From positions 81,255 through 105,254 of the forward strand of contig NZ_RSAA01000006.1 in NCBI RefSeq assembly GCF_003931915.1: 24,000 bases of DNA. Direction: 5' to 3'. Below, piece after piece: positions 1,561 to 19,307 of the stretch; positions within the stretch are counted from its first letter, which is position 1; each line of letters begins with the position of its first letter. The notes under the pieces are model-generated. The model saw nothing but the letters and a program-made list of their open reading frames with translations, was not told where the DNA came from and ran no database searches. The DNA comes from Saccharopolyspora rhizosphaerae. Its GTDB lineage: Bacteria > Actinomycetota > Actinomycetes > Mycobacteriales > Pseudonocardiaceae. The translations under genes and the position numbers were made by a program.

Positions 1561-1734
1561 TGTGTCGATCGTCTCTCCCCGACCACCTGGCCGAGGCGCA
1601 GGAGCCGATCTTTCGTCAGACCGAGCTTGGAAGGTTCCGGAGGGACCTGCCAGACGGACGAAGGACTTGGTCCGAACGGCAGCTGTCGTAGGAACCGTGC
1701 GTCCAGAGGCTCGGTCAGCCCGGAAGCAGGTGGG

Positions 1735-2550: not shown

Positions 2551-2551
2551 C

Positions 2552-2881
2552 TCACATCACCTCGACTGATCTGATCCGCAGCTCGGTCCCCGCGAGCAGT
2601 TCGACGTCGGCGTTGCCGCAGGGGCACAACGCCACCGGCCCGTTGATCTCGGTCTCGCTCCGGCACCGCGCGCACGCGATGCGCCCGCGCGGTTCGTCGA
2701 TGTCGAGCCGGGCTCCCTGCACCGTCGTGCCCTCGGCGACCAGCTCGAAGCAGAAGCGCACCGAGTCGGCCACCACCCCGGAGAGCGCACCGATCTCCAG
2801 TTGGAGGCTCGCGATCCGCGTCGAACCCATCCGCTCGACGACCCCGCTCACGATGCTCTCGGTGATGGCCAGCTCGTGCAC
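2552..2881 (-). CDS. hypA: Hydrogenase nickel-insertion metallochaperone HypA
   Basis: The ORF at 2552-2932 was trimmed to GTG 2881-2879, giving (V)HELAITESIV, the typical MHE HypA N-terminus. An RBS GGAGGGAG lies upstream. Zn-finger pairs CARC...CPCG are present. 109 aa. Confidence 0.9.
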   Translation of the reverse strand: MHELAITESIVSGVVERMGSTRIASLQLEIGALSGVVADSVRFCFELVAEGTTVQGARLDIDEPRGRIACARCRSETEINGPVALCPCGNADVELLAGTELRIRSVEVM

Positions 2882-2928
2882 CCGACTCCCTCCTCGACGA
2901 GCGGCAGGACCGCCACCCCCACACCGGT

Positions 2929-3186
2929 TCACCGGGTGGGGCGCTCTTCCTCGGGCATGGCCTGCCCCATCAGCTCCAGCCCGGACAGGGCCTCGTCCGC
3001 CTGCGCCCGGTCGACCTTCTCCACGGCGAAACCGACGTGGATGAGCACCCAGTCACCGGGAGCGAGGCTCCCGGGCTCGAGCAGCCCGATGTTCACCCGC
3101 CGCCGGGCGCCGACGACGTCCACGATCGCGAGCTGGTCGTTGTCGGCGACCAGCTCCACGACCTCTCCGGGAATTCCCAGGCACAT
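2929..3186 (-). CDS. hypC: HypC/HybG/HupF-family hydrogenase assembly chaperone (copy 1)
   Basis: 85 aa starting MCLGIPG (essential Cys2). RBS GAGGGAG lies upstream of ATG 3186-3184. Confidence 0.9.
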   Translation of the reverse strand: MCLGIPGEVVELVADNDQLAIVDVVGARRRVNIGLLEPGSLAPGDWVLIHVGFAVEKVDRAQADEALSGLELMGQAMPEEERPTR

Positions 3187-3213
3187 GCTCGTGACGCTCC
3201 CTCGACGCTGTCG

Positions 3214-3336
3214 TCACATCGTGCGGATCCGCTTGTACCGCTTGACGTCCGGCCACGACAGGACGCCGAGGTAGACGCCTCCGGCGACAGCCGCCAGCAA
3301 GAACACCGTCGTGGCGATCCCGAGCTTGCGCATCAT
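3214..3336 (-). CDS. Small (40 aa) single-pass membrane protein, absent from the ORF track
   Basis: My translation is MMRKLGIATTVFLLAAVAGGVYLGVLSWPDVKRYKRIRTM*. It has one hydrophobic helix and a basic tail. Its ATG (3336-3334) overlaps the endopeptidase TGA (3335-3333) as ATGA. GC3 is high and it fills an otherwise empty 147-bp gap. From memory it resembles a 'DUF6893-type small protein' found in actinobacterial hydrogenase loci. I could not verify this. Confidence 0.5.
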   Translation of the reverse strand: MMRKLGIATTVFLLAAVAGGVYLGVLSWPDVKRYKRIRTM

Positions 3337-3824
3337 TTCTCCTCACCGGCGCCCGCAGGCGCCAACTCGTGGTTCAACAGGGACGTGATGGTCGCGACGG
3401 CCGGTTCGAGCGCCGCCGCGACGGGTTCGGAGAGCCCGAGGGACTCCTCGGTGGACAGTGGTGTGCAGCCGACGACGTAGGTGCGGGGCAGTTCCCCGCC
3501 CATGGCCACGAGAGTGGCCAGCACCGACGTGGGGTTCATGCTGTGCGCGTCGAGCCCGTCGGCCTCCTCCACGTGCTCAGGCCCGACCTCCAGCACCCGC
3601 ATCTCGCCGGGCGCACCGTCGGCCGGGAGGGCGTCGACGAGCACCAGGGCGTCGTACCCGTCCAGCAGTTCGTAGGCCAGGTGCAGTCCCCTGATCCCGT
3701 AGTCGATGACCCTGGCGTGCTCGGGCACCGGCCTCGCCGAGAGCAGACGGACGACCTCGGGGCCGAAACCATCGTCGCCGAGGAACATGTTGCCGATCCC
3801 GGCCACGAGCACCCGGGGCCTCAT
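3333..3824 (-). CDS. [NiFe]-hydrogenase maturation endopeptidase (HyaD/HybD/HupD family)
   Basis: The ORF was trimmed to MRPRVLVAGIGNMFLGDDGFGPEV, which carries the family motif GxGNxxxxDDGxG. A His (DAHSMNP) lies downstream. ATG 3824-3822 overlaps the upstream TGA (ATGA). 163 aa. Confidence 0.9.
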   Translation of the reverse strand: MRPRVLVAGIGNMFLGDDGFGPEVVRLLSARPVPEHARVIDYGIRGLHLAYELLDGYDALVLVDALPADGAPGEMRVLEVGPEHVEEADGLDAHSMNPTSVLATLVAMGGELPRTYVVGCTPLSTEESLGLSEPVAAALEPAVATITSLLNHELAPAGAGEEK

Positions 3825-5215
3825 GCGACACCTCCGGGCTCGAGCGGTTCGATCTCCTCGGGTCCGAAGTAGAGGTAGCGCCCGTACCACTGGTGGAGGT
3901 CGCCGGCGGGGTCGTCGCGCAGCACCACCGCCACGTGGACCCGCCCGTCGACGTCGCGGTCGACCCTCGTCACCACAGCGACCTGGCCCGCGAGGAAGAG
4001 GTCCTGGGCGTCGGCCCGACGCGAGGGTCGCAACCGCACGTGACTGCCCGCTGCCACCGGGGTTCCGCCGACCAGCACGGAGTCCGTCTCAGGCCGCACG
4101 CTCGCATCCACGTCCGGGTCCCACCACGGCCGGTCCGCACCGTCGTGCCCGGGTGTCGACCACGTCGGGACCTCGCCGCCCGCGGGAACCTCGCGGGTGG
4201 TGCCGTGCAGCCGTCCGAGCTCGGTGTCGGGCAAGCTCTCGCAACGGTCCAGGAGCGCCCGGGCGCGGTCGTCGGTGGCGCGGACCTCGCGCTTCTCGTC
4301 CTCGGTCAGCGTCATGACCCGCAGCGTGAGCAGCTCGTCGATCTCGGTGGAGTCGAAGAGGTCACCGGGGCTCTCGGCGGCGACCTCGGGCCAGTCGTAG
4401 AGGATGATGGGCGCGGCGAGCACGACGTCCTGGTCCCCCTTCTCGCCGACGAGCACCGGCCAGCAGCGGTGGTTCGCGCACTGCGCCGCCGCCTCGGAGG
4501 CCCAGGCCGGCGGGTCGATCACCGACAGGAACCGGCCGTCCAGCACCGAGAGCACCACGTGCGCGCTGAGCAACGAGCGCTGCAACGCCTGGTCCCGGTG
4601 CGGTCGACCGGATTCCAGGGGGACCCACGGGTGCTGGTTCTCCAGCCGCAGGCCGACCGCCACGGCACCACCCACCCGCCGCGCGCTCACCCGCAGCACC
4701 GCGCTCAGCGGCAGGCGCTCGCGCACGACCTTCCCGACGAGCTCGCCGTGCTCGTCGCGGAGGAGCTCGGCCTCCGCGCCGCCCGGGACCTCCACCGGCA
4801 GGAGCCGCTCCACGCCGTCCAGCAGCTCCGGGATGTGCTGCGGGGCGAGGTCCACCTCCTGCTCCACCGCTTCGTCCCAGCTCAGCCAGGTCTGGGAGCC
4901 GCAGGTCAGCTCGTGCACCGGCGTGAGCCGGCGCGGTGTCGCCTCCCGGCGCCACACCGTGCGCGACTGCAGCTGCAGGAAGCGCACGCGGATGTCCACA
5001 GTGGTCTCACCGCCGAGCTCCAGCAGGCAGTCGGTGGACATCGCGGAGTCCTCGCCGCAGCCGGCCTCGCGGGCGCCGATCGGCCCGAGCACGCCGAACT
5101 GCCAGCGCACCTGGTTCTTCGCGGCCGAGGCCCGGTAGGGGTAGAGCAGGTAGCCCTCGTAGAGCACCGCGTCGGCGATCACCCGCGCCCGGTCGAGCAG
5201 GTCCGTGCTGGTCAC
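3821..5215 (-). CDS. Conserved hypothetical protein of group 1h hydrogenase loci (464 aa), function unknown
   Basis: The ORF at 3821-5344 was trimmed to GTG 5215-5213, which has RBS GGAGGTGA upstream and forms a GTGA overlap with the upstream gene. The sequence is non-repetitive with high GC3. I recognise no catalytic motif. Confidence 0.75.
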   Translation of the reverse strand: MTSTDLLDRARVIADAVLYEGYLLYPYRASAAKNQVRWQFGVLGPIGAREAGCGEDSAMSTDCLLELGGETTVDIRVRFLQLQSRTVWRREATPRRLTPVHELTCGSQTWLSWDEAVEQEVDLAPQHIPELLDGVERLLPVEVPGGAEAELLRDEHGELVGKVVRERLPLSAVLRVSARRVGGAVAVGLRLENQHPWVPLESGRPHRDQALQRSLLSAHVVLSVLDGRFLSVIDPPAWASEAAAQCANHRCWPVLVGEKGDQDVVLAAPIILYDWPEVAAESPGDLFDSTEIDELLTLRVMTLTEDEKREVRATDDRARALLDRCESLPDTELGRLHGTTREVPAGGEVPTWSTPGHDGADRPWWDPDVDASVRPETDSVLVGGTPVAAGSHVRLRPSRRADAQDLFLAGQVAVVTRVDRDVDGRVHVAVVLRDDPAGDLHQWYGRYLYFGPEEIEPLEPGGVA

Positions 5216-5862
5216 GACCTCACCTCCGCCGCGTCCCGCGCTTCGTCGAGCAGTGCGGCGCACACCTCGTCCCAGCCGAGCAGACCACGCCGCTTCTTGA
5301 AGCGCCGCAGCTCGGCGATGGTCTCCTCCTGCAGCCGCAACCACCCGCTGCCCGGGAAGTGCCGGTGCACCAGTTCGTCCCAGACGGCGACGGGCATCCG
5401 GTGGTCGACGTCGTGCTCCCAGGAGATCTGCTCGACCGCGAAACCGGTGTCACCGCGGGTGAAGACCGTTCCGGCGAAGCTGAGGCAGAGCGGTACCTCG
5501 CCGTCCTCGAGGGCGTGCAGGTACTTCGACGCGGCGACCTCGTGGTCGTAGGTGACCGACATCGGCAGGTCGAACTCACGAGCACCCCGGAAGCCCTGCA
5601 CCGTGGTCGAGCAACACCCCCATAGCAGGGGTTTCAGCGTGCGGCCCCACCGTTCGGGTTCGCCGAAGAGGTCGGTCACCCCCTCCTGTTCCGCCTCGGT
5701 GTAGCGCCGCCGCTGCGCGTCGATGCGCACCTGCGCGCGCACCGCCATCGCGTGCACGGTCTCGCCTGTGCTCTCGTCCACGCGCACCCGGAACTGCAGC
5801 ACCGGCGACACGGCGTAGGGCTCCGGCCGGGCGTCGAGGACCGCGAAGGTCAGCCGAGTCAT
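5212..5862 (-). CDS. Conserved hypothetical protein (216 aa), hydrogenase-operon associated
   Basis: The true start is MTRLTFAVLDARPEPYAV at ATG 5862-5860, with RBS AGGAGG and an ATGA overlap with the upstream gene. The rest of the 411-aa track ORF is a GC-rich read-through extension. From memory it resembles a 'DUF6084'-type protein. Not verified. Confidence 0.75.
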   Translation of the reverse strand: MTRLTFAVLDARPEPYAVSPVLQFRVRVDESTGETVHAMAVRAQVRIDAQRRRYTEAEQEGVTDLFGEPERWGRTLKPLLWGCCSTTVQGFRGAREFDLPMSVTYDHEVAASKYLHALEDGEVPLCLSFAGTVFTRGDTGFAVEQISWEHDVDHRMPVAVWDELVHRHFPGSGWLRLQEETIAELRRFKKRRGLLGWDEVCAALLDEARDAAEVRS

Positions 5863-6542
5863 GAGGCCTCCTGTCCGGTGCGCACGGGGCGGCTGCGCGT
5901 GCGAAGGTCGTCGAAGAACCGCTGCAGCCGTTCCCGGACCTCCTGGCCGCCGTCGAAGCCGCGCCACTGCCGCCGCAGGTGCCCGACGAGCTCGTAGCAG
6001 GCGTCGATGGGGACCAGGAAGCAGTCGAAGGCGTCCTCCCCGGCCCCGACCGGCCCCTCGACGTTCCGGTCGGCGACCAGGACGGCCTCCACGTCGGGTT
6101 CCGCGTCGGCAAGACCGGGGTTGACGGCGACGACCTCCTCCCACCCGGCCACGGTCAGCTCGGACTCGGTGGCCCCGGCGGGGCTCGGGTAGAACGCCAC
6201 CACCCGGCCCAGCCGCGAGTTGCGGAAGAAGAACGCCATGCCGACCGGGACCCCGAGCGCTTCCCACTGCGCCCTGGTCAGGGCGAATTCCGGGAACTGC
6301 TGGTAGCGCTCGGGAACCGCTCGGTACCGGCCGGCCGCGGCGCCCTCCGGGACGAACAGGAACGAGCACGGCCGGCAGGTGCACATCAGCTCGCGGCTGT
6401 CGAGGTCCACCACGTGCGGGTGGGACTGCTCGACGGGTTCCGCGCACATCTCGCAGCGCTCGCCGTCGCGGCGGCTGGGAGCGTTGCGCATCACCCGCTG
6501 CAGGGCGCCCACCGAGCCCGGGGGAACGCGCCGGCCCGTCAT
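5859..6542 (-). CDS. Conserved hypothetical Cys-motif protein (227 aa), hydrogenase-operon associated
   Basis: The start is MTGRRVPPGS at ATG 6542-6540, overlapping the upstream stop as ATGA. It contains CEMCAEPVEQSHPHVVDLDSRELMCTCRPC, i.e. CxxC...CxCxxC plus HxH, a possible metal site. From memory it resembles a 'DUF5947'-type protein. Not verified. Confidence 0.75.
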   Translation of the reverse strand: MTGRRVPPGSVGALQRVMRNAPSRRDGERCEMCAEPVEQSHPHVVDLDSRELMCTCRPCSFLFVPEGAAAGRYRAVPERYQQFPEFALTRAQWEALGVPVGMAFFFRNSRLGRVVAFYPSPAGATESELTVAGWEEVVAVNPGLADAEPDVEAVLVADRNVEGPVGAGEDAFDCFLVPIDACYELVGHLRRQWRGFDGGQEVRERLQRFFDDLRTRSRPVRTGQEAS

Positions 6543-7432
6543 CCCGCCACCGCCGGTGCCGGTACCGCGATCTCCAGCACGCCGTCGTTCTCCAGCAGCG
6601 GCAGCGGGTCCAGGTGGCGGGTCCCTTCGTCCAGCCCGGCTCCGGCGGCCCGCACGTCGTAGTGCGACCGGCAGGTCGGGCAGATCAGGATCGCCGAGCC
6701 GGCTGGACCGCCGGGTGCCCGCTGCAGGCTCGCCCCGGCGACGCTGCCGCCGCACCCGGGGCAGGCGTCCCGGAAGGCGTAGCTGTGCCGGCCGACCCGG
6801 CAGACCACGACGTCCACATCGGACACCACCAGCGAGCGGATCTGCCCGGACTCCAGCGGACCGGCCTCGACCTGCTCCCACACCGCGTTTCCCGCGACTC
6901 GGCCGGCGCGAGCACGGTGCAGCAGGGACTCGGCCGGGATCACCGAAGCGTCCTCCGGCGAGTCGTCGCACTCGATGGACTCGATCTCCGGTGCGGCGGC
7001 CTCGATCGCCCCCTCCACGGCCAGCGTGAGCGTCACCGTCGAGGAGGGGCAGCCCTGGCAGGTGCCGAGCATCCGCAGCCGCACCACGGAGTCCTCGACA
7101 CCGAGCAACCGGACGTCGCCACCGTGCGAGCCGAGGTAGGGACGCACCCGTTCCAGGGCCCGCTCGATCCGCGTCTCGACGTCGTGCGGGTGCAGGCCGT
7201 GCAAAAGCAGCAGGCTCGACACCAGCTCGTCGTCGGCGAACCGCTCCAGCAGGTCGCCGCTGAGCAGCCCCGCCTCGTCGGTGATCTCCAGGACGCGTTC
7301 CAAACCTGCGCCGTGCAGCCGCGAGACCAGCCGGACCAGTTCCTCGGCGCGCTGCCGGGCCAACGGCCCGCTCGCGTCGAAGGACGCCAGCAGCTGGTCG
7401 ATCCGCTCTCCCGAAACCTCGTTGCCGCTCAT
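6539..7432 (-). CDS. hhyE: NifU-like / Rieske-like putative Fe-S protein (HhyE/HucE-type)
   Basis: 297 aa. The central NifU C-terminal-type domain reads LGSHGGDVRLLGVEDSVVRLRMLGTCQGCPSSTVTL. The C-terminal domain has paired motifs CPGCGG ... CPTCRSHYD in a Rieske-like arrangement. ATG 7432-7430 overlaps the hhyL TGA (ATGA). Confidence 0.8.
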   Translation of the reverse strand: MSGNEVSGERIDQLLASFDASGPLARQRAEELVRLVSRLHGAGLERVLEITDEAGLLSGDLLERFADDELVSSLLLLHGLHPHDVETRIERALERVRPYLGSHGGDVRLLGVEDSVVRLRMLGTCQGCPSSTVTLTLAVEGAIEAAAPEIESIECDDSPEDASVIPAESLLHRARAGRVAGNAVWEQVEAGPLESGQIRSLVVSDVDVVVCRVGRHSYAFRDACPGCGGSVAGASLQRAPGGPAGSAILICPTCRSHYDVRAAGAGLDEGTRHLDPLPLLENDGVLEIAVPAPAVAG

Positions 7433-9216
7433 TCCTCCGGACTACCTCCGCTCGGCGAGTGCAACCGTTCCAGCGACTTCCCCTTGCCCAGGTACATGTG
7501 CACGCCGCAGGGCAAGCAGGGGTCGAAGCTGCGGACCGTGCGCATGATGTCGATGCCCTTGAAGTTCTCCCGGTTGTTCTCCTCGAACAGCGGCTGGTCC
7601 TGCACCGCGTCCTCGTAGGGGCCCGGGGTGCCGAAGCTGTCGCGCGGACTGGCGTTCCAGGGCGTCGGCGGGTACGGGTGGTAGTTGGCGATCTTGCCGT
7701 CCTGGATCACCATGTGGTGCGAGAGAACGCCGCGCACCGCTTCGGTGAAGCCGCAGCCGACCGCCTCGTCGGGCACCTCGAAGCGCTCCCAGGTCTTGGT
7801 GTTGCCGGCGTGGATCTCGGCCATCGCGCGTTCGGCGAAGTGCAACGCGCACGCGGCGGCGTAGGCCTGGAAGTAGGTCCGGGCGCGGTTGCGCTCCAGC
7901 GTGTTGCTCCACTTCGGGATCTTCCACTCGAGCTCGACCTCGGGCTTGAGCCCGGTCTTGGGCAGCCGGATCTTCACGCTCTGGCCGGTCGCCTTGACGT
8001 GGTCGGTCTCGACCTTGCCCGCCAGCGCGGTCGCCCACAGGCGGGCGAGCGGGCCGCCACCGGTGTCCAGCGGCAGGTGGTCCTTGCCGTCGTACCACCG
8101 CGGCGACATGACCCAGCTGTACTTGTCGTCGAGGTCGCGGCGCTGCGGGTGCGGGTTGGTGTGCTGGTTCCAGGGGTGGCGTTCGTCGACCGGGTTGCCC
8201 AGCGGGTCGCGTTCGACGAACTTGCCCTGACCCTTCCAGTCGTCGTAGTAGGAGCTGCCGAGCAGGATCCGGATGCCCAGGTTGATGTCGACCAGGTCGG
8301 TGGTGACCAGCCTGCCGTCCACCACGACTCCAGGGGTCACGAACATCTTGTTGCCCCAGGCGTTCATGTCCTTGTAGGAGAAGTTGCACACCTCGGGGTC
8401 TTGGAAGGCCCCCCAGCAGCCGAGCAGGATGCGCCGGTTGCCGACCTGCTCGTAGCCGGGCAGCGCCTCGTAGAAGAAGTCGAAGAGGTCGTCGTGCAGC
8501 GGCACCGCGCGCTTCATGAACTCCACGTAGCGCATCAGCCGGGTCGTGTAGTCGGTCATGAGCTGGACCGTGGCGACGGTGCCGACCCCGCCCGGGTACA
8601 ACGTGGAGGGGTGCACGTGCCTGCCCTCCATGAGGCAGAACATCTCCCGGGTGCTGCGGCTGACCTGCAGCGCTTCGCGGTAGTACTCGCCGGAGAAGGG
8701 GTTGAGCGCGCGCATGATGTCGGCGATGGTCCGGTACCCGTGCTTGTCCGCGTTGGGAGCTCGGGTGTTCTCCGCCTTCTTGAGCACGCCCGGGTTGGTC
8801 TCGGAGACCATCTTCTCGCAGTAGTCGACCCCGACCAGGTTCTCCTGGAAGATGTTGTGGTCGAACATGTACTCGGCGGCCTCGCCGAGGTTGACGATCC
8901 ACTCGCTGATGTTCGGGGGCTTGACCCCGTAGGCCATGTTCTGCGTGTAGCAGGAGCAGGTGGCGTGGTTGTCCCCGCAGATGCCGCAGATCCGGCTGGT
9001 GATGAAGTGCGCGTCGCGCGGGTCCTTGTCCTTCATGAAGATGCTGTACCCGCGGAAGATCGACGAAGTGCTCTTGCACTCGGCGACGGTCCGGTTCTCG
9101 AAGTCGATCTTGGTGTAGATCCCGAGGCTGCCGACGATGCGGGTGATCGGGTCCCAGTTCATGTCGACGAGCTGGGTCTTCTCCTTCTTCGTGGAAGGCT
9201 GCACTTTCGTGGCCAT
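7429..9216 (-). CDS. hhyL: [NiFe]-hydrogenase large subunit, group 1h/5 (high-affinity type)
   Basis: The 734-aa track ORF was trimmed to MATKVQPSTKKEKTQLVDMNWDPITRIVG (ATG 9216-9214), giving 595 aa. The L1 motif TSRICGICGDNH and L2 motif SFDPCLPCGVH match the group 5/1h signatures. After the His there is a 22-aa C-terminal extension (MYLGKGKSLERLHSPSGGSPEE), presumably removed by the endopeptidase. Confidence 0.95.
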   Translation of the reverse strand: MATKVQPSTKKEKTQLVDMNWDPITRIVGSLGIYTKIDFENRTVAECKSTSSIFRGYSIFMKDKDPRDAHFITSRICGICGDNHATCSCYTQNMAYGVKPPNISEWIVNLGEAAEYMFDHNIFQENLVGVDYCEKMVSETNPGVLKKAENTRAPNADKHGYRTIADIMRALNPFSGEYYREALQVSRSTREMFCLMEGRHVHPSTLYPGGVGTVATVQLMTDYTTRLMRYVEFMKRAVPLHDDLFDFFYEALPGYEQVGNRRILLGCWGAFQDPEVCNFSYKDMNAWGNKMFVTPGVVVDGRLVTTDLVDINLGIRILLGSSYYDDWKGQGKFVERDPLGNPVDERHPWNQHTNPHPQRRDLDDKYSWVMSPRWYDGKDHLPLDTGGGPLARLWATALAGKVETDHVKATGQSVKIRLPKTGLKPEVELEWKIPKWSNTLERNRARTYFQAYAAACALHFAERAMAEIHAGNTKTWERFEVPDEAVGCGFTEAVRGVLSHHMVIQDGKIANYHPYPPTPWNASPRDSFGTPGPYEDAVQDQPLFEENNRENFKGIDIMRTVRSFDPCLPCGVHMYLGKGKSLERLHSPSGGSPEE

Positions 9217-9286
9217 GTGGCTGTCCCCCTGCGGACGGGTGCGAATTCGGGCGGGTGCCCGGGCGCGGTGCCGGGCTGGGTGCCGG

Positions 9287-10345
9287 CTAGCGCTGCGATC
9301 CCTGGTAGCCGGTGGTGAGCTCGGCGGCGCGATGGCGCCACTTGGGTTCCTTGTCGAGCGTCTTGCCGGTGATCTTGCGCAGCGAGCGGACCGCGGCGCC
9401 GTAGGGACCGACCACGGTGGTGGACAGCTTCCCGCCGGGGGGTTCGTCCATGAACGGCATGAACTTGTCCGGGAACCCGGGCATGGTGCAACCGATGCAG
9501 ATGCCGCCGACGTTGGGGCAACCGCCGATGCCGTCCATCCAGCCCCGCTTGGGCACGTTGCACTTGACGACCGGGCCCCAGCACCCGAGCTTGACGATGC
9601 ACTTCTCCGAGCCGTACTCCTCGGCGAAGTCACCCTGCTCGTAGTAACCCGCGCGATCGCAACCCTCGTGCACGGTCCTGCCGAACAGCCAGGTCGGCCG
9701 CAGCGCCTCGTCCAGCGGGATCATCGGCGCCTGACCACTGGCCTGGTAGAGCAGGTAGGTGATCGTCTCGGCGAGGTTGTCGGGCTGGATCGGGCAGCCG
9801 GGCACGCACACGATCGGCAAGCCCGCCTTGGACTTCCAGTCCCAGCCCAGGTAGTCGGGGACACCCATGGCGCCGGTCGGGTTGCCCGCCATGGCGTGGA
9901 TCCCGCCGTAGGTCGCGCAGGTTCCCGCGGCCAGCACGGCCAAGGCCTTGGGCGCGAGCCGGTCGATCCACTCGTTGGTCGTGATCGGCTGCTGGGTGGC
10001 CGGGTCGTTGCCGAACCCGCACCAGTACCCCTCGCCGCTGACCTCCTCGTTCGGGATCGAGCCCTCGACCACCAGCACGAAGGGCTCCAGCTCGCCGCGG
10101 TCGGCCTTGCGGAACCACTCGAGGAAGTCGTCGGCCCCGCCCTGCGGACCGCACTCGAAGTCGATCAGCGGCCAGTGCACCGCCACGTTCGGCAGTCCCG
10201 GCAGGGCGCCGAGCGCGATCTCCTCCACGCTCGGCTGGGTCGCGGCGGTCAGCGCGACGGAGTCGCCGTCGCAGCTGAGTCCTGCGTTGATCCACAGCAC
10301 GTGGATCGGTGCTTGCTCAGGAGAAGTCTTCGCCCCTGCTGTCAT
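9287..10345 (-). CDS. hhyS: [NiFe]-hydrogenase small subunit, group 1h/5, no Tat signal
   Basis: 352 aa. Contains Cys clusters typical of small subunits (GLSCDGDS, GTCATYGG, VPGCP, KLGCWGPVVKCN, GGCPNVGGICIGC). The N-terminus MTAGAKTSPEQAPIHVLW has no RRxFxK twin-arginine motif. Confidence 0.95.
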   Translation of the reverse strand: MTAGAKTSPEQAPIHVLWINAGLSCDGDSVALTAATQPSVEEIALGALPGLPNVAVHWPLIDFECGPQGGADDFLEWFRKADRGELEPFVLVVEGSIPNEEVSGEGYWCGFGNDPATQQPITTNEWIDRLAPKALAVLAAGTCATYGGIHAMAGNPTGAMGVPDYLGWDWKSKAGLPIVCVPGCPIQPDNLAETITYLLYQASGQAPMIPLDEALRPTWLFGRTVHEGCDRAGYYEQGDFAEEYGSEKCIVKLGCWGPVVKCNVPKRGWMDGIGGCPNVGGICIGCTMPGFPDKFMPFMDEPPGGKLSTTVVGPYGAAVRSLRKITGKTLDKEPKWRHRAAELTTGYQGSQR

Positions 10346-10526
10346 CGTGCCACCACCTCCAGGTGTCTCGGACGGGCCGGGTGGGCCCGGGTTCCTCGGC
10401 GATCGGGTGGCACGTCGTGTCAGCGAGCTCCGCTCCGCGGCGGTGGCACGGGTGCTACCCCTCGGCGGTGGCCCGGCACGAGCTCACCGCTCCTCAACTG
10501 ATCCGGCACGATCACCCCCTCTGCTG
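10346..10526 (-). promoter_or_regulatory. Upstream region of hhyS (181 bp): RBS plus a repeated GGCACG-containing motif array, probable promoter/operator region
   Basis: RBS GGAGGTG lies about 10 nt upstream of the ATG. On the plus strand, GGTGGCACG occurs at 10406-10414 and 10442-10450. CCGGCACGA occurs at 10473-10481 and 10503-10511. The inverted copy CGTGCCACC at 10346-10354 abuts the start codon. I could not assign a clear -35/-10 pair. Confidence 0.3.
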
Positions 10527-11333
10527 TCAGGAGCCCTCGAGGTCGGCGGACGGACGTTCGGTGCGCGCGGTCCGGTCCCGGGCGAGGGTCCGGTTGGTCA
10601 GCCGCAGCTGACGGTCGGTGCAGTCGCGCAGTGCGGCGAGCTGCCGGTCGTTGAGCCGGTCGCAGACCCAGTCCCAGTGCATCGAAACCTGGTCCCCGGG
10701 TTTGATGTCGCGCAGCAGCGAGCGTCCGCGGTCCGCCCAGCGCGGCCGTTCCTCCCGTTCCGGACCCCACGACAGCTGCCGGCCGTCCCACCTCAGCGGG
10801 CGGGAGCGCACGACGGCGCGGTCCCCTTCCACGGCCAGCACCCGGCCCCACCGGATGCGGCACTGGTCGAGCACCGACAGGGCGGGTTCGCCGTCACCGC
10901 GGCCGAGCATGCCGACCCACGGGTACACCTCGAAGACGTGGAAGCTGTGGTGCGGCAACGCCTCCGACGTCTCGAACCGTCCCGCGGGCAGTCCGGAGAA
11001 CCGGGCTCCGACCTGGTCGGCGAAGCGGGCCCGCACCGTCGCGCCGAACCGGACCGGGTCGACCTGCTCCAGCAGCGGGCTGCCGATCCAGTACGCCTCG
11101 ACGACGGCCGGATCCAGGGGATCCGTACCGGTACCGGCGGAGATCACCTCCAGGTAGGCCCACGCCCCGTCGAAATCTCGTGCGCGGCGGACCAATTCGC
11201 TCTCCGACACCACATCCTCCGCAGACGCGGAGGACAGCAGCTCCTCGGCGGAAGGCGGCCCGCAGTAGCCCAGCTCGTTGGGCGGGTAGGCGTAGCGCGC
11301 GAACATCGCAGGTCCGCTCTCCAGCTGGTGCAC
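10527..11333 (-). CDS. Conserved hypothetical protein (268 aa) encoded after hypE, function unknown
   Basis: The ORF starts at GTG 11333-11331 (RBS AAGGAGG); an alternative ATG lies at 11306. The sequence FARYAYPPNELGYCGPP... has high GC3. It sits 24 nt downstream of the hypE stop, so it is probably co-transcribed. From memory it resembles a 'DUF6390'-type protein. Not verified. Confidence 0.7.
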   Translation of the reverse strand: MHQLESGPAMFARYAYPPNELGYCGPPSAEELLSSASAEDVVSESELVRRARDFDGAWAYLEVISAGTGTDPLDPAVVEAYWIGSPLLEQVDPVRFGATVRARFADQVGARFSGLPAGRFETSEALPHHSFHVFEVYPWVGMLGRGDGEPALSVLDQCRIRWGRVLAVEGDRAVVRSRPLRWDGRQLSWGPEREERPRWADRGRSLLRDIKPGDQVSMHWDWVCDRLNDRQLAALRDCTDRQLRLTNRTLARDRTARTERPSADLEGS

Positions 11334-11357
11334 GGTCCTCCTTCCCCGACCCGACGG

Positions 11358-12441
11358 TCAGCAGATCCGGGGCAGCTGCTCGCCCAGCGGCAGGTCCACG
11401 ACCCGGGTGGCGCCGAGGCCGGTCCGGGCCACCATCGTGCCCGGGTGTTCGGCCACGCACTCGCCGATCACCCGCGCCTCGGCACCGAGCTCGTGGCGGC
11501 GCATCGCCTCCAGGACCCTGTCGGCGTCGTCTGCGGGCACGATCGCGATCAGCTTGCCCTCGTTGGCCACCAACATCGGGTCCAGTCCCAGCAGTCCGCA
11601 GGCGTTGACCACCGAGTCCGGCACCGGCAACGACCGCTCGTCGATGCGGATGCCGACCTGGGCGGCGCGGGCGATCTCGTTGATCGAGGCCGCCAGTCCA
11701 CCGCGGGTGGGGTCGCGCAGCACGTGGATGTCGGCGCCCGTCGCGAGCATCTCCGTGACGAGCCCGTTGAGCGGCGCGGTGTCGCTGCGCACCGCCGTGC
11801 CGAACTCGACGCCGTGCCGGCTGCTCATCACCGCGACCCCGTGCAACCCGAGTGGGCCGCTCACCAGCACCTTGTCGCCCACGCTCGCCCTCGACGGCCG
11901 GACGTCGACGCCATCGTCGACGATGCCGATCCCAGCGGTGTTGACGTAGATCCCGTCCCCGTGGCCGGAGTCGACGACCTTGGTGTCCCCTGTGACCAGC
12001 CGGACGCCCGCGCGCAGCGCCGCCTCCCCCATGGTCCTGGCGACCCTGCCGAGGTCCTCCATCGACGTGCCCTCCTCGATGATGAAGGCCGTCGACAGGA
12101 ACTGGGGCCGTGCGCCGGACATCGCCACGTCGTTGACGGTGCCGTTGACCGCGAGGTCACCGACGTTGCCGCCGGGGAAGAACGTGGGCTTGACGACGTA
12201 GGAGTCAGTCGAGAACGCCACCCGGCAACCGGGCAGCGGCAGCACCGCGGCATCCCCGCCGTCCCCACCGTTGGCCTCGCCGTAACCGGCGAGGAACAGG
12301 TGCTCGACGAGCTCGGCGGACAGGGCTCCGCCGGCGCCGTGGCCCATGACGATGGTCGGCGAATCCCGCAACGGCAGCGGGCAGCTCCAGCCCGGGTCGA
12401 TCGCGGTGGCCGCCACCTCGCGGGAGCCGGTGATCACGTTC

Positions 12442-12449
<8 letters not shown>
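11358..12449 (-). CDS. hypE: Hydrogenase maturation carbamoyl dehydratase HypE
   Basis: The ORF was trimmed to MSENVITGS (ATG 12449-12447, an 8-nt overlap with hypD). It shows an AIR-synthase-like fold signature and the diagnostic C-terminus ...GEQLPRIC. 363 aa. Confidence 0.95.
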
Positions 12450-13550
<1,101 letters not shown>

Positions 13551-13554
<4 letters not shown>

Positions 13555-13862
13555 GCTCGGGGCTCCTGTTCCACACCGGGCTGCTCGACTCCGGCTTGCT
13601 TCGCCGCCTGCGCGAACCCGTCGCCGAACTCCTCCTCCAGCAGCCCGAGGTTCTCGAAGTTCGCTAGGGTCTCCAGCGCCGACTTCTCGTCCAACCGCTG
13701 GATCGCGAATCCCACGTGGACGATCACGTAGTCGTCGACCGCGACGCTGGGGAGGTACTCCAGGCACACGTCCTTGAGCACGCCTCCGAAATCGACTTCG
13801 GCCATCCGGGCTCCGTCTTCCGACCGGAGGCCGACGACGCGTCCGGGGACTGCCAAGCACAT
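13551..13862 (-). CDS. hypC: HypC/HupF-family hydrogenase assembly chaperone (copy 2, with an acidic C-terminal extension)
   Basis: The ORF was trimmed to [10 protein letters not shown] (ATG 13862-13860, RBS AAGGAGA). 103 aa. The C-terminal tail reads ...[28 protein letters not shown]. Confidence 0.9.
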
Positions 13863-14134
13863 GGGCACGGTCTCCTTCCGTGGCCGGGTTCGCGTCCCGG
13901 CGCGCAGACCAGCGCGAGAACGGCTCGTCGCTGTCGTGGTGGGGGTTCGGTCAGGTGGGTCCACGGAGAAGTGGTCGTCATGCTCTGCGTCGCACCTAGG
14001 CCGTGTGTAGACCTGCTCCACACCGCCTGCAAGTCGAGCTCTCTACGTGAAAATCTCGCGCATACCGTAGTTCCCACAGCTCACAGCGCATGCGGACGAG
14101 ATCATCCAGTCGCGCCCGGAAACACGGCTCTGGC

Positions 14135-16393
14135 TCATCCGGGGCACGCGGCGACGACCGCCTGGCCCAGGCACACCCCGCCGTCGTTGGTCGGGACCCG
14201 CGAGTGCGTGAGCACGCGAAAACCGCGATCTTCCAAGGCGGACACGGTGCGGTCGAGCAGCAGCAGGTTCTGGAAGACCCCTCCCGACAGGGCTACACCG
14301 GTGACACCGGTCCGATCCCCGAGCACCTGGCACCCGCGCACGATCACGTCCACCACCCCGTTGTGGAAGCGCGCAGCGATCCGCGACGGGTCGACCCCCG
14401 CTCGCAAGTCCTCGACGCAGGCGCGGACCAGGTCGACCCCGGCGACGACCAGCGGGTCGGAGTCGGAGATCCTGGCGCGGTAGGAGGCGGTTTCGGTGAT
14501 GTCGGCACGTTGTTCGAGCTCGACCGCCGCCTGGCCCTCGTAGTTGATCGCATCGCGCGAGCCCAGCAGCGAGGCCACCGCGTCGAACAGCCGGCCCGCG
14601 CTGGAGGTCAGCGGCGAGTTGAGCCCGGCCCGCAGCAGGCTGCGCACACCGGCCCACTCGGACTCGTTGCGGCGCAGCACCTCCAGGTCGGCGGCCGAGA
14701 TCTCAGCACTGGCGAGGTAGGAGGCCGCCATCCGCCACGGTTGCTTGATCGCCGCCGTGCCACCGGGCATCGGCACCACGCCCAGGTGACCCACGCGCCG
14801 GAAGCTCGAGACGTCGGCGAGCAGGAACTCACCTCCCCAGATCGTGCCGTCGGTGCCGTACCCGGTGCCGTCGAACGCCACGCCGATGACCGGGCCGCGT
14901 TCCCCGTTGTCCGCCAGGCAGGAGGCGATGTGCGCGTGGTGGTGCTGCACACCGACCCGTTCCACGCCGTCGAGTGCGCGCGCGTACTTCGTCGACAGGT
15001 ACTCCGGGTGCAGGTCGTGCGCGACGACCTGCGGGGTGATGTCGAAGAGCTCGCGGAAGTGGTCGATCCCCGTGGTGAACGAGCGCAGCGTCTCGTAGTT
15101 CTCGAGATCGCCGATGTGGTGGGAGAGGAAGGCGTGCTTGCCCGCCGCGAGGCAGAAGGTGTTCTTCAGCTCTGCTCCGCACGCGAGCACCGGACGGCCG
15201 AAGCCGCCCGGCACGGTCACGGGTTCGGGGACGTACCCGCGCGAGCGGCGCTGCAGCTGCTCTCGCCCGCGGAACGGACGCACCACCGAGTCGTCGGTGC
15301 GGATGTGGATCTCCCTGTCGTGCACGAGGAAGGCGTCCGCGATGCCGCGCAGCCGGGTGAGCGCGTCGTCGTCCTGGTGGACGATCGGTTCGTCGGAGAC
15401 GTTCGCGCTGGTGAGCACGATCGGAGCGGCGAGGTCGGCGAGCAGCAGGTGGTGCAGCGGGGTGTAGGGCAGCATGATGCCCAGCTGCCGGTTGCCGGGC
15501 GCCACCTCCGCCGCCACCGCGGCGTCAGGGTGCTTGGGCAGCAGGACGATCGGCCTGCGCCGGCCGAGCAGCAGCCGTTCTGCGAGTGCGTCGACCTGGC
15601 CGAGGCGGCGCGCTGCGTCCAGGTCGGGCACCATCACGGCGAACGGCTTGTCCTCCCGGTGCTTCCGCGCGCGCAGCGTCGCCGCCGCGGTGGGGTGGGC
15701 CGCGTCCACCGCCAAGTGGTAGCCACCCAGTCCTTTGATCGCGACGACCTGCCCGGCGCGCAGGCCGCTCACGACCGCCTGCACCGGATCTCCGGGGATG
15801 CGCCGACCGTGCGCGTCGTGCAGCCCCAAGCTCGGTCCGCAGTCCGGGCAGCACACCGGTTGGGCGTGGAAGCGGCGGTCCCGGGGGTCGTCGTACTCCC
15901 GCGCGCACGCGGGGCACATCGGGAACCCCGCCATGGTGGTGAGCGGTCGGTCGTAGGGGATCCCGCGCACGATCGTGAACCGCGGGCCGCAGTGGGTGCA
16001 GTTGACGAACGGGTACCGGTAGCGCCGGTCGGCCGGGTCGTGCAACTCGGCCAGGCAGTCCTCGCAGGTGGCGCTGTCGGCCGAGACCAGCGTGTTGGTC
16101 TGGCCGCCGGTCGGACTGGCGACGATGCGGAACTCGGCCTCGCCCACCGGCGCGATCTCCTCGGAGCGCACCGCGTCGACCACCGCGAGTGCCGGCGCCT
16201 CGGTCTGCAGGGAGTCCAGGAACTTCTCGATCGCCGATCGATCACCCTCGACCTCGACGAAGACGCCGTCCGAGTCGTTGCCGACGTGACCGCCGAGCCC
16301 GAGGCGCGTCGCGAGGCCGTGCGCGAACGGCCGGAAACCGACCCCCTGCACCACGCCTTCGACACGCACGGACACCCTGACCTGCTCACTCAC
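14135..16393 (-). CDS. hypF: Carbamoyltransferase HypF
   Basis: Contains an acylphosphatase domain (VEGVVQGVGFRPF), two Zn-finger pairs (CEDC...CTHCGPRF; CPAC...CPDCGP), and YrdC-like and Kae1-like C-terminal domains. The start is set at the second of two GTGs (16393-16391), 6 nt after RBS AGGAGGGAG; 16396 is equally possible. About 752 aa. Confidence 0.93.
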   Translation of the reverse strand: MSEQVRVSVRVEGVVQGVGFRPFAHGLATRLGLGGHVGNDSDGVFVEVEGDRSAIEKFLDSLQTEAPALAVVDAVRSEEIAPVGEAEFRIVASPTGGQTNTLVSADSATCEDCLAELHDPADRRYRYPFVNCTHCGPRFTIVRGIPYDRPLTTMAGFPMCPACAREYDDPRDRRFHAQPVCCPDCGPSLGLHDAHGRRIPGDPVQAVVSGLRAGQVVAIKGLGGYHLAVDAAHPTAAATLRARKHREDKPFAVMVPDLDAARRLGQVDALAERLLLGRRRPIVLLPKHPDAAVAAEVAPGNRQLGIMLPYTPLHHLLLADLAAPIVLTSANVSDEPIVHQDDDALTRLRGIADAFLVHDREIHIRTDDSVVRPFRGREQLQRRSRGYVPEPVTVPGGFGRPVLACGAELKNTFCLAAGKHAFLSHHIGDLENYETLRSFTTGIDHFRELFDITPQVVAHDLHPEYLSTKYARALDGVERVGVQHHHAHIASCLADNGERGPVIGVAFDGTGYGTDGTIWGGEFLLADVSSFRRVGHLGVVPMPGGTAAIKQPWRMAASYLASAEISAADLEVLRRNESEWAGVRSLLRAGLNSPLTSSAGRLFDAVASLLGSRDAINYEGQAAVELEQRADITETASYRARISDSDPLVVAGVDLVRACVEDLRAGVDPSRIAARFHNGVVDVIVRGCQVLGDRTGVTGVALSGGVFQNLLLLDRTVSALEDRGFRVLTHSRVPTNDGGVCLGQAVVAACPG

Positions 16394-16695
16394 CACGGAC
16401 TCCCTCCTGCCACCACGATCGCGGTGCGCTCGGTGTCCATGGAACCGCAACCCGCGCCCCTCCACGACCGGGTCCTCTGTGGACATGCTGCGACGATCCC
16501 CCGTTGTGAAGCCGAGAATCCTTCACGCGAGCAGGAGGACCGCTCGGGCGTCGGGCAGATCCGAGCGGCAGCAGGAGGCTGTTCACCATCGCGGCGCACC
16601 GCCGCCGGCAGCGCCTCGTGGCGAGTCGCGCACACCAGGAGTGGTGCAGGTGGCCCCGGAGCCGCCCAGGTCCTGCTACCGGTACCCGAAGGCGT

Positions 16696-17193
16696 TCAGG
16701 AGCGCTTGTAGACCTTGCCGTCGAGGGTGCGCGGGCGGTCTGAGGGCGGCCAGACGTACGGCATGTCGTCGGGGACGCCGTCGAAGAACCGCCGGTAGTG
16801 CTCGGGGTGCTTCCGCACCAACGCGGACTGGTGGCTGCGGTGGAACAGCGGGTCGCCCCACCACGGCGGCAGCTCTCCGGCCTCCGCGAGCTCGTCCTGC
16901 GAACGCACCGCGGTCAGCCCGGTCGTCTCCAGCAGGTCTTCGCGGATGCTCACCTCGCAGGTGTCGGGCCTGCCGGTCACGGTCCAGGCACCGCACATCG
17001 CGAGGCCGTAGCAGGCCAACGCCTCTTCGTACCCCGCCCACATCGCCACCGCGGGGTGGTGCTGCCAGCCGTACCCCTCCCGGGTCAGCGCGCGCAGCAC
17101 CTGCAGCGCTTCCACGCGCTGCTTGCCGAGCCGGCGATCATCGAGCACCGCGGCCGACTCGTCGAAGCTCGGGTACGGGAGGAACGTCTGCAC
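16696..17193 (-). CDS. T4 endonuclease V-like pyrimidine-dimer DNA glycosylase family protein ('MSMEG_6728-family')
   Basis: The N-terminus (V)QTFLPYPSFDESAAVLDDRRLGKQRVEALQVLRAL...HPAVAMW matches my memory of actinobacterial Pyr_excise-like proteins, which start MQTFLPYPDF...LGKQRVE. The start is taken as GTG 17193-17191. The track's longer start at 17220 is the alternative. Confidence 0.6.
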   Translation of the reverse strand: MQTFLPYPSFDESAAVLDDRRLGKQRVEALQVLRALTREGYGWQHHPAVAMWAGYEEALACYGLAMCGAWTVTGRPDTCEVSIREDLLETTGLTAVRSQDELAEAGELPPWWGDPLFHRSHQSALVRKHPEHYRRFFDGVPDDMPYVWPPSDRPRTLDGKVYKRS

Positions 17194-17273
17194 CCCTCCC
17201 GGGTTCCCGCACGCCACCACGGGTAACCGCCCACCGAGGCACCGCCGGTGTCCGTGCGCTCACGTGGACCGGG

Positions 17274-17300: not shown

Positions 17301-17728
17301 TCAGCGGCGGCCACCCCGGAGCGCCACCAGCGCGGCCAGCGCGGCCAGATCCGCGGTTGCGCCAGCAACGCCCGGATCGCGGGCGTCGGAGGCTCTCCCT
17401 GCCGCGATCCGACCGTCGGAGTCCACGGTCAACCTGTCGATCACGGGGAGGCGCAGTTCCCGGTCACCGAGGTGAGCGAGCAGCACCAAGTCCACCACGA
17501 GGACCTCCCCCTCGGTCCACCACCGACGGACCTCCCCGCGGAGGTCGGGCATCAGCTCGAACAGGCGTCCGTACTCGTCGGCGAGAGCCTCACGACCTCG
17601 TCGATCCGGGAGCAGCGGTTGGTGCAGTTCCACGTCCGGGCTGAGCAAGTCGTCCCAGGCATGAGCGTCCGGCTGTGCCCACCCCCGGGCGACTGCTCGA
17701 CCACGCGCTCCGCTGCCGGGTCGACCAC
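17301..17728 (-). pseudogene. NTF2/SnoaL-like domain protein interrupted by a frameshift in a G5 run
   Basis: GTG 17728-17726 (RBS GAGAGGGAAG) opens a high-GC3 frame, VVDPAAERVVEQSPGG. The SnoaL-like body (WAQPDAHAWDDLLSPDVELHQPLLPDRRGREALADEYGRLFELMPDLRGEV...DSDGRIAAGRA) lies in the -1 frame, beginning right after the run CCCGGGGG (17682-17689). Upstream of that run, the body frame has low GC3 and no plausible start. Confidence 0.45.
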
Positions 17729-17888
17729 GGTCTTCCCTCTCACCTGCCCGCGCACGTCCCACAGGCGCAGGGAACACAGCGCCGAGCGCCACGTCAAGGT
17801 TGAACGCCCAGACCGGACGAACGCCGCGCCCCCGATCGCTGCGACCGGGGGCGCGGCGCACACCGCCACCACCCGAGGGCACGCCATC

Positions 17889-17908
17889 GCTGACGACATG
17901 TCGTCAGC
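17889..17908. repeat. 20-bp perfect palindrome GCTGACGACATGTCGTCAGC
   Basis: The sequence equals its own reverse complement. It can fold as an 8-bp stem with a CAUG loop on either strand. It lies in the non-coding stretch between the NTF2-like gene and the fusA/tuf fragments. Confidence 0.9.
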
Positions 17909-18024
17909 CTGCCGAAACACCACCCTGACCTGCGCGAACACGCACCGCCACGAAGGCGAGGCGCGACGTGGAGGGAGCGAGGGGGCGTCAACCTCGCGTG
18001 AGGACGTCGCGAGCGCTTCTGAGC

Positions 18025-18179
18025 ACGACTGCGCCGTGAGCAGCGCGGACTCGCCCGGCGTCTGGCGGGCGCCGCGTCTCGACCTGAGCAGCGGAGTCAA
18101 CAAGGTGGACAAGCTGGGTGCGGACTTCTACTTCCGGACCACGGACGTGACCGGCGTCGTGACCCTGCCCGAGGCGTGA
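18025..18179 (+). pseudogene. Chimeric gene relic: an EF-G (fusA) internal fragment fused in frame to an EF-Tu (tuf) domain-3 fragment
   Basis: Plus-strand translation gives ...[52 protein letters not shown]. The part VWR...[13 protein letters not shown] resembles actinobacterial EF-G (from memory ...[28 protein letters not shown]...). The part [16 protein letters not shown] is identical to EF-Tu (from memory ...[21 protein letters not shown]...). There is no start codon or RBS. Confidence 0.7.
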
Positions 18180-18252
18180 TCCCGGTGTAGTGCAGAACGC
18201 GCTCGGTCGTGGTGGTCCTGCCCGCATCGATGTGGGCGTCGTGGCGGAGGCG
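18178..18252 (-). pseudogene. EF-G (fusA) N-terminal G1/P-loop fragment in inverted orientation, abutting the tuf fragment
   Basis: Minus-strand translation gives RLRHDAHIDAGRTTTTERVLHYTGI, compared with EF-G from memory (K/R)(V/L)RN(I/F)GIMAHIDAGKTTTTERIL(Y/F)YTG(I/V). An in-frame TGA lies upstream at 18296-18294 and there is no start codon. Downstream the frame runs into the antisense of the tuf piece. Confidence 0.7.
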
Positions 18253-18458
18253 GGGCGCGACCCCGGTTCCCGGGCCGCGCCCCGCCTGTCGAAGTCATCC
18301 TCCCACTGCTCGTCCCTCGTGGACGCTCGTCAGCGGTCTCGATGACGACGACGTCGTACCCCTGGTGCGGAGAGTCCAGCGAAGCTGCTCCTACGAGCGC
18401 ACGCCCACCGTGGAGGAAGGCGAGCGGAACCACCCTCGCGCACAGCGGCGTTGCGGCC

Positions 18459-19307
18459 TCACCCCTTGACGGCGCCGCCGAGCTGGGCACGCACCAGGTG
18501 GCGCTGGCTGATCAGGAACACCACGGCCACCGGCACGGTCGCCACCAGCGCGATGGTGAGCTTCAGCGGCAACTGCTGCCCTTCGCCCAGCGCTCCGCCG
18601 ACGAGGCGGGCGAGCCCGACGGTCAACGTCTCGTAGCCGGGGCTGGAGGTCGACACCAGGTAGTGGGTGAACTCGTTCCACGAAGCTTGGAACGCCAGGA
18701 TGCCCAAGGTGACCACCGCCGGACGCACCATCGGCAGCACCACGCTCCACCAGCGCCGCACGACGCCCGCGCCGTCCATCTTCGCCGACTCCTCGACCTC
18801 GTGCGGGACCTGCTCGAAGGCCTGCTTCATGAGGAAGATCCCCATCGCGTCGGCCAGCAGCGGCAGGATCATCCCGGCGTAGGAGTCGAACAGCGACAGT
18901 TCCCGCAGGACGAGGAACTTCGGGATCAGCAGCACCACCGGTGGCACGGCCATGACCATCAGCACGCCGCTGAACACCGTCCCGCGGCCGCGCCAGCGCA
19001 GTCGTGCCAGCGCATAACCGGCCATCGCGTCGATCAGCAGCCGCCCGACGGTGACCGAGACCGTGACCAGCAGCGAGTTGCCCAGCCACAGCGGCACGTC
19101 CACCGCCGGGTCGGTGGCGACCCGCTCGTAGCTGCTGGTGTCGACCTGCTCGGGGATCAGCGACAGCGGGTGGGCCACCGCGTCCGCGTCCGACTTGAAC
19201 GAGGTGGCCACCTGGATGAGGAAGGGGCCCAGGTAGAGCACCGCGCCCACGACCAGCACGAGGTAGCCGAGGGCCACGCCCAGCACCCGGACTCGCTTGG
19301 TGCTCAC
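18459..19307 (-). CDS. Carbohydrate ABC transporter permease (MalG/CUT1-type)
   Basis: The ORF was trimmed to (V)STKRVRVLGVALGYLVL at GTG 19307-19305 (RBS GGGAGGAA, GTGA overlap with the upstream permease). It has six predicted hydrophobic segments and an EAA-like loop EESAKMDGAG. 282 aa. Confidence 0.9.
   Translation of the reverse strand: MSTKRVRVLGVALGYLVLVVGAVLYLGPFLIQVATSFKSDADAVAHPLSLIPEQVDTSSYERVATDPAVDVPLWLGNSLLVTVSVTVGRLLIDAMAGYALARLRWRGRGTVFSGVLMVMAVPPVVLLIPKFLVLRELSLFDSYAGMILPLLADAMGIFLMKQAFEQVPHEVEESAKMDGAGVVRRWWSVVLPMVRPAVVTLGILAFQASWNEFTHYLVSTSSPGYETLTVGLARLVGGALGEGQQLPLKLTIALVATVPVAVVFLISQRHLVRAQLGGAVKG

Follow-up and report, generated by a model that had tools for sequence, protein, structure and literature searches.

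In the genome of Saccharopolyspora rhizosphaerae, a non-coding gap contains a 151-nt mosaic in which fragments of fusA and tuf are joined in both orientations. It occupies positions 18096-18246 of the window, by which we mean the whole 24-kb stretch of DNA that was analysed, and it consists of three pieces, probably four, with sharp edges. Along the plus strand, and in the nucleotide numbering of the donor genes, these are fusA 406-444 (piece A), tuf 997-1045 (piece B), inverted fusA 115-55 (piece C) and possibly inverted tuf 237-229 (piece D). The pieces are 39-61 nt long, with the possible last one a stub of 9 nt, and in both orientations together they span about 3.3 kb of a single str operon. 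The mosaic is most likely a lineage-specific, non-functional scar of error-prone DNA-break repair and not a gene; 18096-18246 is probably a templated or captured insertion, left at a break by microhomology-mediated template switching combined with end joining.

Composition and uniqueness of the mosaic

Nucleotide tests were made against the genes of relatives, not those of the host. The reference str operons were those of Nonomuraea gerenzanensis (L041), Nocardia farcinica (L042) and Tsukamurella tyrosinosolvens (L043), in the last of which rpsL-rpsG-fusA-tuf is annotated. All three stand in PLSDB as 'plasmid' records (NZ_LT559118.1, Nonomuraea, 11.85 Mb; NZ_LN868939.1, Nocardia, 2.66 Mb; NZ_LR134464.1, Tsukamurella, 224 kb), and they are evidently chromosomal, because each bears the rpsL-rpsG-fusA-tuf operon. 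A protein search with the Nocardia EF-G returned Nocardia and its relatives only, with no match from Saccharopolyspora. Measured against natural fusA and tuf genes of other organisms and not the host's own, identity is 92% for piece A, 100% for piece B and 88.5% for piece C; the heterogeneity of changes among the pieces is marginal (about 0.05-0.09) in a rough count that takes the relatives' genes as references.

The whole window has a G+C content of 70%. A degenerate pattern for the 11-residue peptide across the fusA-tuf junction found no match in 185,579 species genomes and none in viral contigs, and the 24-kb window contains no further fusA or tuf fragment. Rfam detects no structured RNA family at the mosaic, and neither strand has a predicted RNA fold better than those of shuffled sequences. 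A phage or plasmid origin of the mosaic was also considered and found no support in the collections searched.

The fusA-tuf junction

Piece A (18096-18134, plus strand) is a copy of fusA nt ~406-444, from the G4 region of EF-G. It matches the Tsukamurella gene over nt 406-444 at 36 of 39 positions (E 4.5e-10, small database), the Nocardia gene at 35/39 and a fusA homologue on metagenome contig L046 at 35/38, and a codon-shuffle control gave p<0.0005. It departs from the references by a single replacement, ATG to GTG, and at two synonymous sites. The upstream edge is abrupt: identity to fusA is about 92% within the piece and at chance level upstream of 18096. In local alignment, the score of 18036-18095 against fusA nt 286-405 was no better than those of codon shuffles (p 0.21 and 0.70), which argues against any graded decay of fusA, and global alignments of the DNA upstream of 18096 to fusA were inconsistent with one another. 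A search of solved structures aligned the stretch before the EF-Tu-like residues weakly to residues 120-151 of the M. tuberculosis EF-G (E 0.089). The candidate 'decayed fusA' (VWR) upstream of 18096 was examined by alignment and shuffle test and is best taken as chance.

Piece B (18126-18174, plus strand) copies tuf nt ~997-1045, in domain 3 of EF-Tu. An exact scan with the 49-mer found it identical, at 49 of 49 nt, to five natural tuf genes on metagenome contigs (L044-L048); against tuf nt 997-1045 it scores 47/49 with Tsukamurella, 46/49 with Nocardia and 43/49 with Nonomuraea. Its 16-residue translation is exactly residues 333-348 of the M. tuberculosis EF-Tu in the search of solved structures, as the initial annotation had recognised for domain 3. 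In the five metagenomic tuf genes the 49-mer is preceded by CGTCCGCAG (RPQ), whereas the mosaic has GGTGCGGAC (GAD) in that place. One of these contigs (L046, ERZ501054.77-NODE-77) has a peculiarity of its own: at ~1682-3800, upstream of tuf, it has a fusA homologue whose alignment to EF-G starts only at residue 115; the G1-G3 part of this homologue is swapped for unrelated in-frame sequence, and it may be another rearranged or truncated fusA.

The two pieces overlap in 9 nt, TTCTACTTC (encoding FYF), at 18126-18134. The same word stands in both parent genes at matching positions, fusA nt 436 and tuf nt 997, and it is for this reason that the proposal of a fusA-tuf chimera joined at a common Phe-Tyr-Phe can be regarded as confirmed. 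The match is far beyond chance. A 9-nt exact overlap at a random blunt join has a probability of about 1e-5. Roughly 45-60 exact 9-mers are common to fusA and tuf in each genome, and homology-guided jumping between the two genes would therefore be easy.

Other parts of the original reading need to be redrawn. The left part of the chimera does come from the EF-G G4 region at 18096-18134, but not from ~18051 onwards, as 18036-18095 is at shuffle level. A chimera lies within the interval first proposed (18025-18179), but the feature extends as far as 18246, taking in an inverted fragment from the 5' part of fusA and possibly a stub of tuf. The suggestions that the fusA part had decayed upstream, and that the two parts differ in age or that the tuf segment is under selection, lose their support because there is no fusA homology upstream of 18096; the upstream similarity cannot be distinguished from chance, and with piece B being the sequence of natural tuf alleles, neither age nor selection is needed.

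The inverted half of the mosaic

Downstream of piece B, two bases, CG (18175-18176), have no assignment; they could be added nucleotides, or could belong to piece C if the host fusA reads ATC ACG. At this B/C junction tuf would go on with GGC and the reverse complement of fusA would read ...GT before TGATCC, which leaves at most 1-2 nt of microhomology. Piece C (18177-18237, minus strand) is an inverted copy of fusA nt ~55-115, the G1/P-loop region of EF-G, and reads AHIDAGRTTTTERVLHYTGIT on the minus strand. It agrees with nt 55-115 of the Nonomuraea fusA at 54 of 61 positions (E 7e-12 in 7.3 Gb of plasmid records), was aligned by tblastn to EF-G residues 19-43 (E 1.4e-6), and was recovered in a six-frame search as Pfam GTP_EFTU (E 0.0016). 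Its changes, which are not seen in the natural fusA references, turn the invariant P-loop Lys into Arg, an Ile into Val and a Phe into His, and may or may not be native to the host. The Lys-to-Arg change in the P-loop indicates a piece of fusA that is not under selection for GTPase function.

Piece C is followed by a 9-nt stub, CGCCACGAC (18238-18246, minus strand), that corresponds to tuf nt ~229-237, the RHY of RHYAHVDA. At the C/D join the common word GCCCAC (18232-18237) is extended by the imperfect (A/G)TCGA(T/C)GC. The 15-mer CGCCACGACGCCCAC, which spans the join, finds the RHYAH site of tuf in five of six tuf loci at no more than 2 mismatches (1 in Nocardia); in a background of ~1.36 Mb, both strands, it has 9 matches at up to 2 mismatches and none at up to 1. 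A fourth, tuf-derived piece is probable, its 9 nt being suggestive but short of proof.

These inverted pieces bear directly on the mechanism first put forward, a single microhomology-mediated deletion between fusA and tuf. Such a deletion explains the A/B join alone; the inverted fusA nt 55-115, and probably the tuf stub, lie beyond it, and the extended, decaying homology that a simple deletion predicts is absent. In its fuller form, the mosaic would be the relic of a duplicated str operon that lost ~2.8 kb when a microhomology-mediated deletion joined fusA to tuf at FYF, and that afterwards decayed and was truncated. The two genes are indeed adjacent and co-oriented in relatives, and the A/B junction falls inside the 9-nt common word. 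This history is nevertheless distinctly unlikely: an additional inversion and several deletions would be needed to place fusA 55-115 in inverted orientation after tuf 1045 and then tuf 229-237, similarity does not fade gradually but drops from ~92% to chance at 18096, and the 24-kb window has no other fusA or tuf remnant. What is found is not what a decayed paralogue would leave, in that homology is confined to blocks of 39-61 nt, piece C is inverted and the upstream DNA is at chance level.

Genomic context

The mosaic is situated in a 735-nt non-coding gap between a sugar ABC operon and an NTF2-like gene. All of the neighbouring genes are on the minus strand: to the left are a NiFe-hydrogenase/hyp cluster, a pyrimidine-dimer glycosylase-like gene and the NTF2-like gene, and to the right is the sugar ABC operon with a gene for a LacI-type regulator. 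The observation that the fragment is remote from any translation-gene context is borne out. The hydrogenase cluster (1735-16486, minus strand) is complete: it encodes the small and the large subunit, and its other genes are the HypA-F-type maturation genes, DUF6084, DUF6390 and one that is NifU-like. About 1.6 kb separates its end from the mosaic, and the syntenic locus of S. rectivirgula lacks it. ARAGORN calls a 99-nt tRNA-Gly (anticodon ACC) at 16824-16922 on the plus strand, opposite the pyrimidine-dimer glycosylase-like coding sequence (16696-17220, minus strand); this is probably a false positive, because Rfam sees no tRNA at that place.

Synteny with S. rectivirgula, the nearest genome compared, extends leftwards from 23998 to 18453, with 82% of the nucleotides identical, and breaks off at the permease stop, which places the mosaic at a synteny breakpoint. 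In S. rectivirgula a convergent gene lies ~57 nt past the permease stop, and none of the genes on the left flank of the window is found within 10 kb of that locus. No relative with both flanks of the mosaic was found, and the left neighbour, an NTF2/SnoaL-like protein annotated on the same 239,242-nt contig as the open reading frame of the mosaic, is without a close orthologue.

Two GC-rich hairpins, both on the minus strand, stand on either side of the mosaic. The right one (18248-18287; dG -40.7 kcal/mol, z -4.1) adjoins it, lies 170 nt past the stop codon of the ABC permease gene (18459) and is likely to be the terminator of the sugar ABC operon. The left one (17822-17858; dG -44.1 kcal/mol, z -6.1) is ~240 nt away, on the opposite side of the gap, by the 5' side of the NTF2/SnoaL gene. 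Between the left hairpin and the mosaic is non-coding DNA (17883-18095) with no detectable source, which may belong to the same insertion event. Neither this stretch nor 18247-18458 gave anything significant in the plasmid, phage and E. coli collections or in the str-operon loci, and a six-frame Pfam search of the gap found only piece C. A minus-strand reading of GYDVVVIETADER (~18330-18368) as the DTAGR motif of an SRP GTPase had no Pfam support and was dropped.

Some further features of the gap may be recorded. A direct repeat, CGAAGGCGAGGCGCGAC at 17951-17967 and CGGAGGCGGGGCGCGAC at 18245-18261, agrees at 15 of 17 positions with its copies 294 nt apart; the right copy starts at the right edge of the mosaic, and the repeat could be the flanking duplication of a larger insert, with ~0.3 such 15/17 repeats expected by chance in 1 kb (an estimate). 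From 17650 to 18095, over ~450 nt, one codon phase has a G+C of 0.83-0.93 and no gene is recognisable on either strand; this DNA may be what is left of a coding sequence since destroyed, or a further stretch of captured coding DNA. The NTF2/SnoaL-like protein itself (17301-17882, minus strand) has 193 aa in the NCBI annotation, with the Pfam domain at residues 63-160; codon-position G+C backs coding only up to ~17650-17723, the hairpin at 17822-17858 falls inside the annotated N-terminus, and the start is probably over-extended. A perfect, operator-like 20-nt palindrome, GCTGACGACATGTCGTCAGC (17889-17908), is found just upstream of this annotated start (17882).

The source is a draft assembly, and a mosaic of this kind might be suspected of being an artefact of assembly or library preparation. 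This is extremely improbable, however: it lies inside unique sequence in the middle of a contig (239,242 nt), its blocks of 39-61 nt and joins of at most 9 nt are far below assembler k-mers, and the changes of piece C are absent from natural fusA references.

The annotated open reading frame

The plus strand holds an open reading frame, annotated by NCBI as a hypothetical protein of 47 aa (18036-18179; 100% match, S. rhizosphaerae), whose protein cluster has one member on one contig (239,242 nt). The fragment had been described as having neither start codon nor ribosome-binding site; an in-frame GTG at 18036 serves as the start of the NCBI call, while the second half of the statement stands, with no Shine-Dalgarno-like motif before that GTG. 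Neither a sigma-70-like promoter nor a U-tailed terminator was found in 17600-18600. In the segment 18021-18110 the G+C of the three codon positions is about 0.65 / 0.45 / 0.93, a pattern consistent with captured, once-coding plus-strand DNA. The 47-aa call is probably spurious, an artefact of annotation that would be due to the codon-position signal which pieces A and B, as captured coding DNA, have kept.

A functional element would be either a real 47-aa protein or a minus-strand RNA antisense to the mRNA of tuf (over 49 nt) or fusA (over 39 nt). NCBI annotates the frame, and the neighbouring genes are all on the minus strand, so that read-through RNA would be complementary to both tuf and fusA. 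Even so, function of either sort is very improbable, given that there is no ribosome-binding site, promoter-like site or unusual fold, that the junction is found in no other genome searched, and that the mosaic lies downstream, on the minus strand, of a strong terminator-like hairpin. A small-protein gene would not be expected to combine a single-sequence cluster with the lack of both a Shine-Dalgarno motif and a promoter-like site. We conclude that the mosaic is non-functional, because it shows no ribosome-binding site, promoter-like site, unusual fold or GTPase constraint.

Break repair as the probable origin of the mosaic

The pieces, their orientations and the sequences at their junctions are observed; the favoured explanation for them is repair of a chromosome break by template switching plus end joining. 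The break would have fallen in the gap that separates the NTF2-like gene from the sugar ABC operon, and a repair polymerase would have copied a few dozen bases of a str operon, switching from one of the two genes fusA and tuf to the other where its growing 3' end was able to anneal anew. One of the jumps would have used the 9 nt of TTCTACTTC, and the other GCCCAC with its imperfect flanking bases. Copying may have started at both broken ends, one time at each, or may have proceeded in series from a single end; in the first case the two nascent ends would have been ligated in the middle, with the B/C and outer junctions closed by end joining of the Ku/LigD type. Against the reference genes, homology amounts to 0-2 nt at the B/C junction in the centre and at the outer junctions. 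Each half of the mosaic is sense sequence running away from its own flank, an orientation compatible with the priming of both broken ends on one common donor region. Nearly as good a fit is given by the serial, one-ended version, or by capture of a fragment that was already chimeric; the outer junctions are without microhomology to the reference genes, whereas simple priming from the broken ends predicts otherwise. The donor may have been the host's own str operon.

Two sets of features speak for such a scar. The donor sequence exists elsewhere, and the junctions are either microhomologies or nearly blunt, with two unassigned bases, as befits an insertion scar. As in rearrangements of the MMBIR/FoSTeS type, there are two switches at microhomology, nearby templates and two inverted pieces, with the second switch hinging on piece D.

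Fragment capture in its pure form would dispense with switching: small double-stranded fragments of a str operon, own or foreign, would have been ligated by NHEJ. The central and outer junctions, with their 0-2 nt of homology, are compatible with this, and NHEJ-dependent capture of fragments has been shown in bacteria (PMC5869714, PMC6379672). We regard it as unlikely, however, in that, of the three internal junctions, two lie exactly within common words, which is unexpected for blunt-joined random ends, and four independent fragments from one 3.3-kb operon are hardly to be expected. Annealing and ligation of pre-existing fragments, on the other hand, is formally inseparable from template switching.

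A route through RNA may also be envisaged. fusA and tuf are carried on one highly expressed polycistronic transcript, and a host reverse transcriptase, jumping from template to template at microhomologies, could have made cDNA of str mRNA that then served as repair template or was captured at a break. Both donors would lie on one str-operon transcript, to judge from the operon order seen in relatives, and in the two-ended reading both halves are sense copies, as the copying of antisense cDNA would presumably give. Bacterial reverse transcriptases of the group II intron-like kind do perform MMEJ and snap-back synthesis at microhomologies (bioRxiv 10.1101/2022.03.14.484287). This route is quite improbable all the same: with pieces in both orientations, a single cDNA strand copied once is insufficient, there is no reverse transcriptase gene in the 24-kb window, and nothing specifically requires RNA. 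Nor is the arrangement that of a processed pseudogene, pieces A and B being on the plus strand and pieces C and D on the minus strand. If the RNA route were true, donors would be drawn preferentially from highly expressed genes, and patches like this one should turn up throughout the genomes of Actinobacteria.

Template switching plus end joining, the reading preferred here, would make the mosaic a clean natural case of a templated insertion that is built of several pieces, joined at microhomologies, and has become fixed in a bacterial chromosome. Such insertions have been documented mostly in eukaryotes, and in bacteria only by experiments with induced breaks. Scars of this kind are recognisable in finished genomes because their donors are highly conserved genes, and a screen of intergenic DNA for short stretches that match core genes at high identity is suggested as a means of estimating the frequency of filler DNA in Actinobacteria. 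The 47-aa 'hypothetical protein' may at the same time be flagged as a spurious annotation.

Comparison with known systems

The mosaic is best classed among the natural instances of a mutational process already known. Its closest counterparts in an actinobacterial host are the NHEJ scars of S. ambofaciens, among which are insertions of 30, 42 and 83 bp copied from the cell's own genome (Hoff et al. 2018, PMC5869714). The two have in common the type of host, short copies of genomic sequence (own-genome copies of 30-83 bp in S. ambofaciens) and microhomologies at the scars. They differ in that the scars of S. ambofaciens followed breaks induced by I-SceI and received single fragments, whereas the mosaic is natural and fixed, holds three to four fragments of one operon in both orientations, and owes its break to inference. 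In S. meliloti, too, DNA fragments are captured by NHEJ (Dupuy et al. 2018, PMC6379672). With bacterial NHEJ capture, as with the filler DNA, NUMTs and cDNA capture of eukaryotes, the mosaic shares the patching of a break without homology to the flanks; NHEJ-captured fragments are, however, normally single, longer and blunt, whereas two of the three internal joins of the mosaic have common words of 6-9 nt.

In its architecture the mosaic resembles the products of MMBIR/FoSTeS (PMC8421209, PMC7954356), with several short segments, switches at microhomologies of 2-15 nt, templates close to one another and mixed orientation. Those processes are known mainly from eukaryotes and cancer genomes, and in the mosaic, by contrast, the donor is apparently distant from the acceptor site and there is no change in copy number. 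A bacterial polymerase with suitable properties is represented by the G2L4 / group II intron reverse transcriptase, for which microhomology annealing, snap-back synthesis and break repair have been described (bioRxiv 10.1101/2022.03.14.484287). The likeness to MMEJ mediated by G2L4 lies in the use of short microhomologies by such a polymerase in break repair; that study reported no multi-fragment inserts from an expressed operon.
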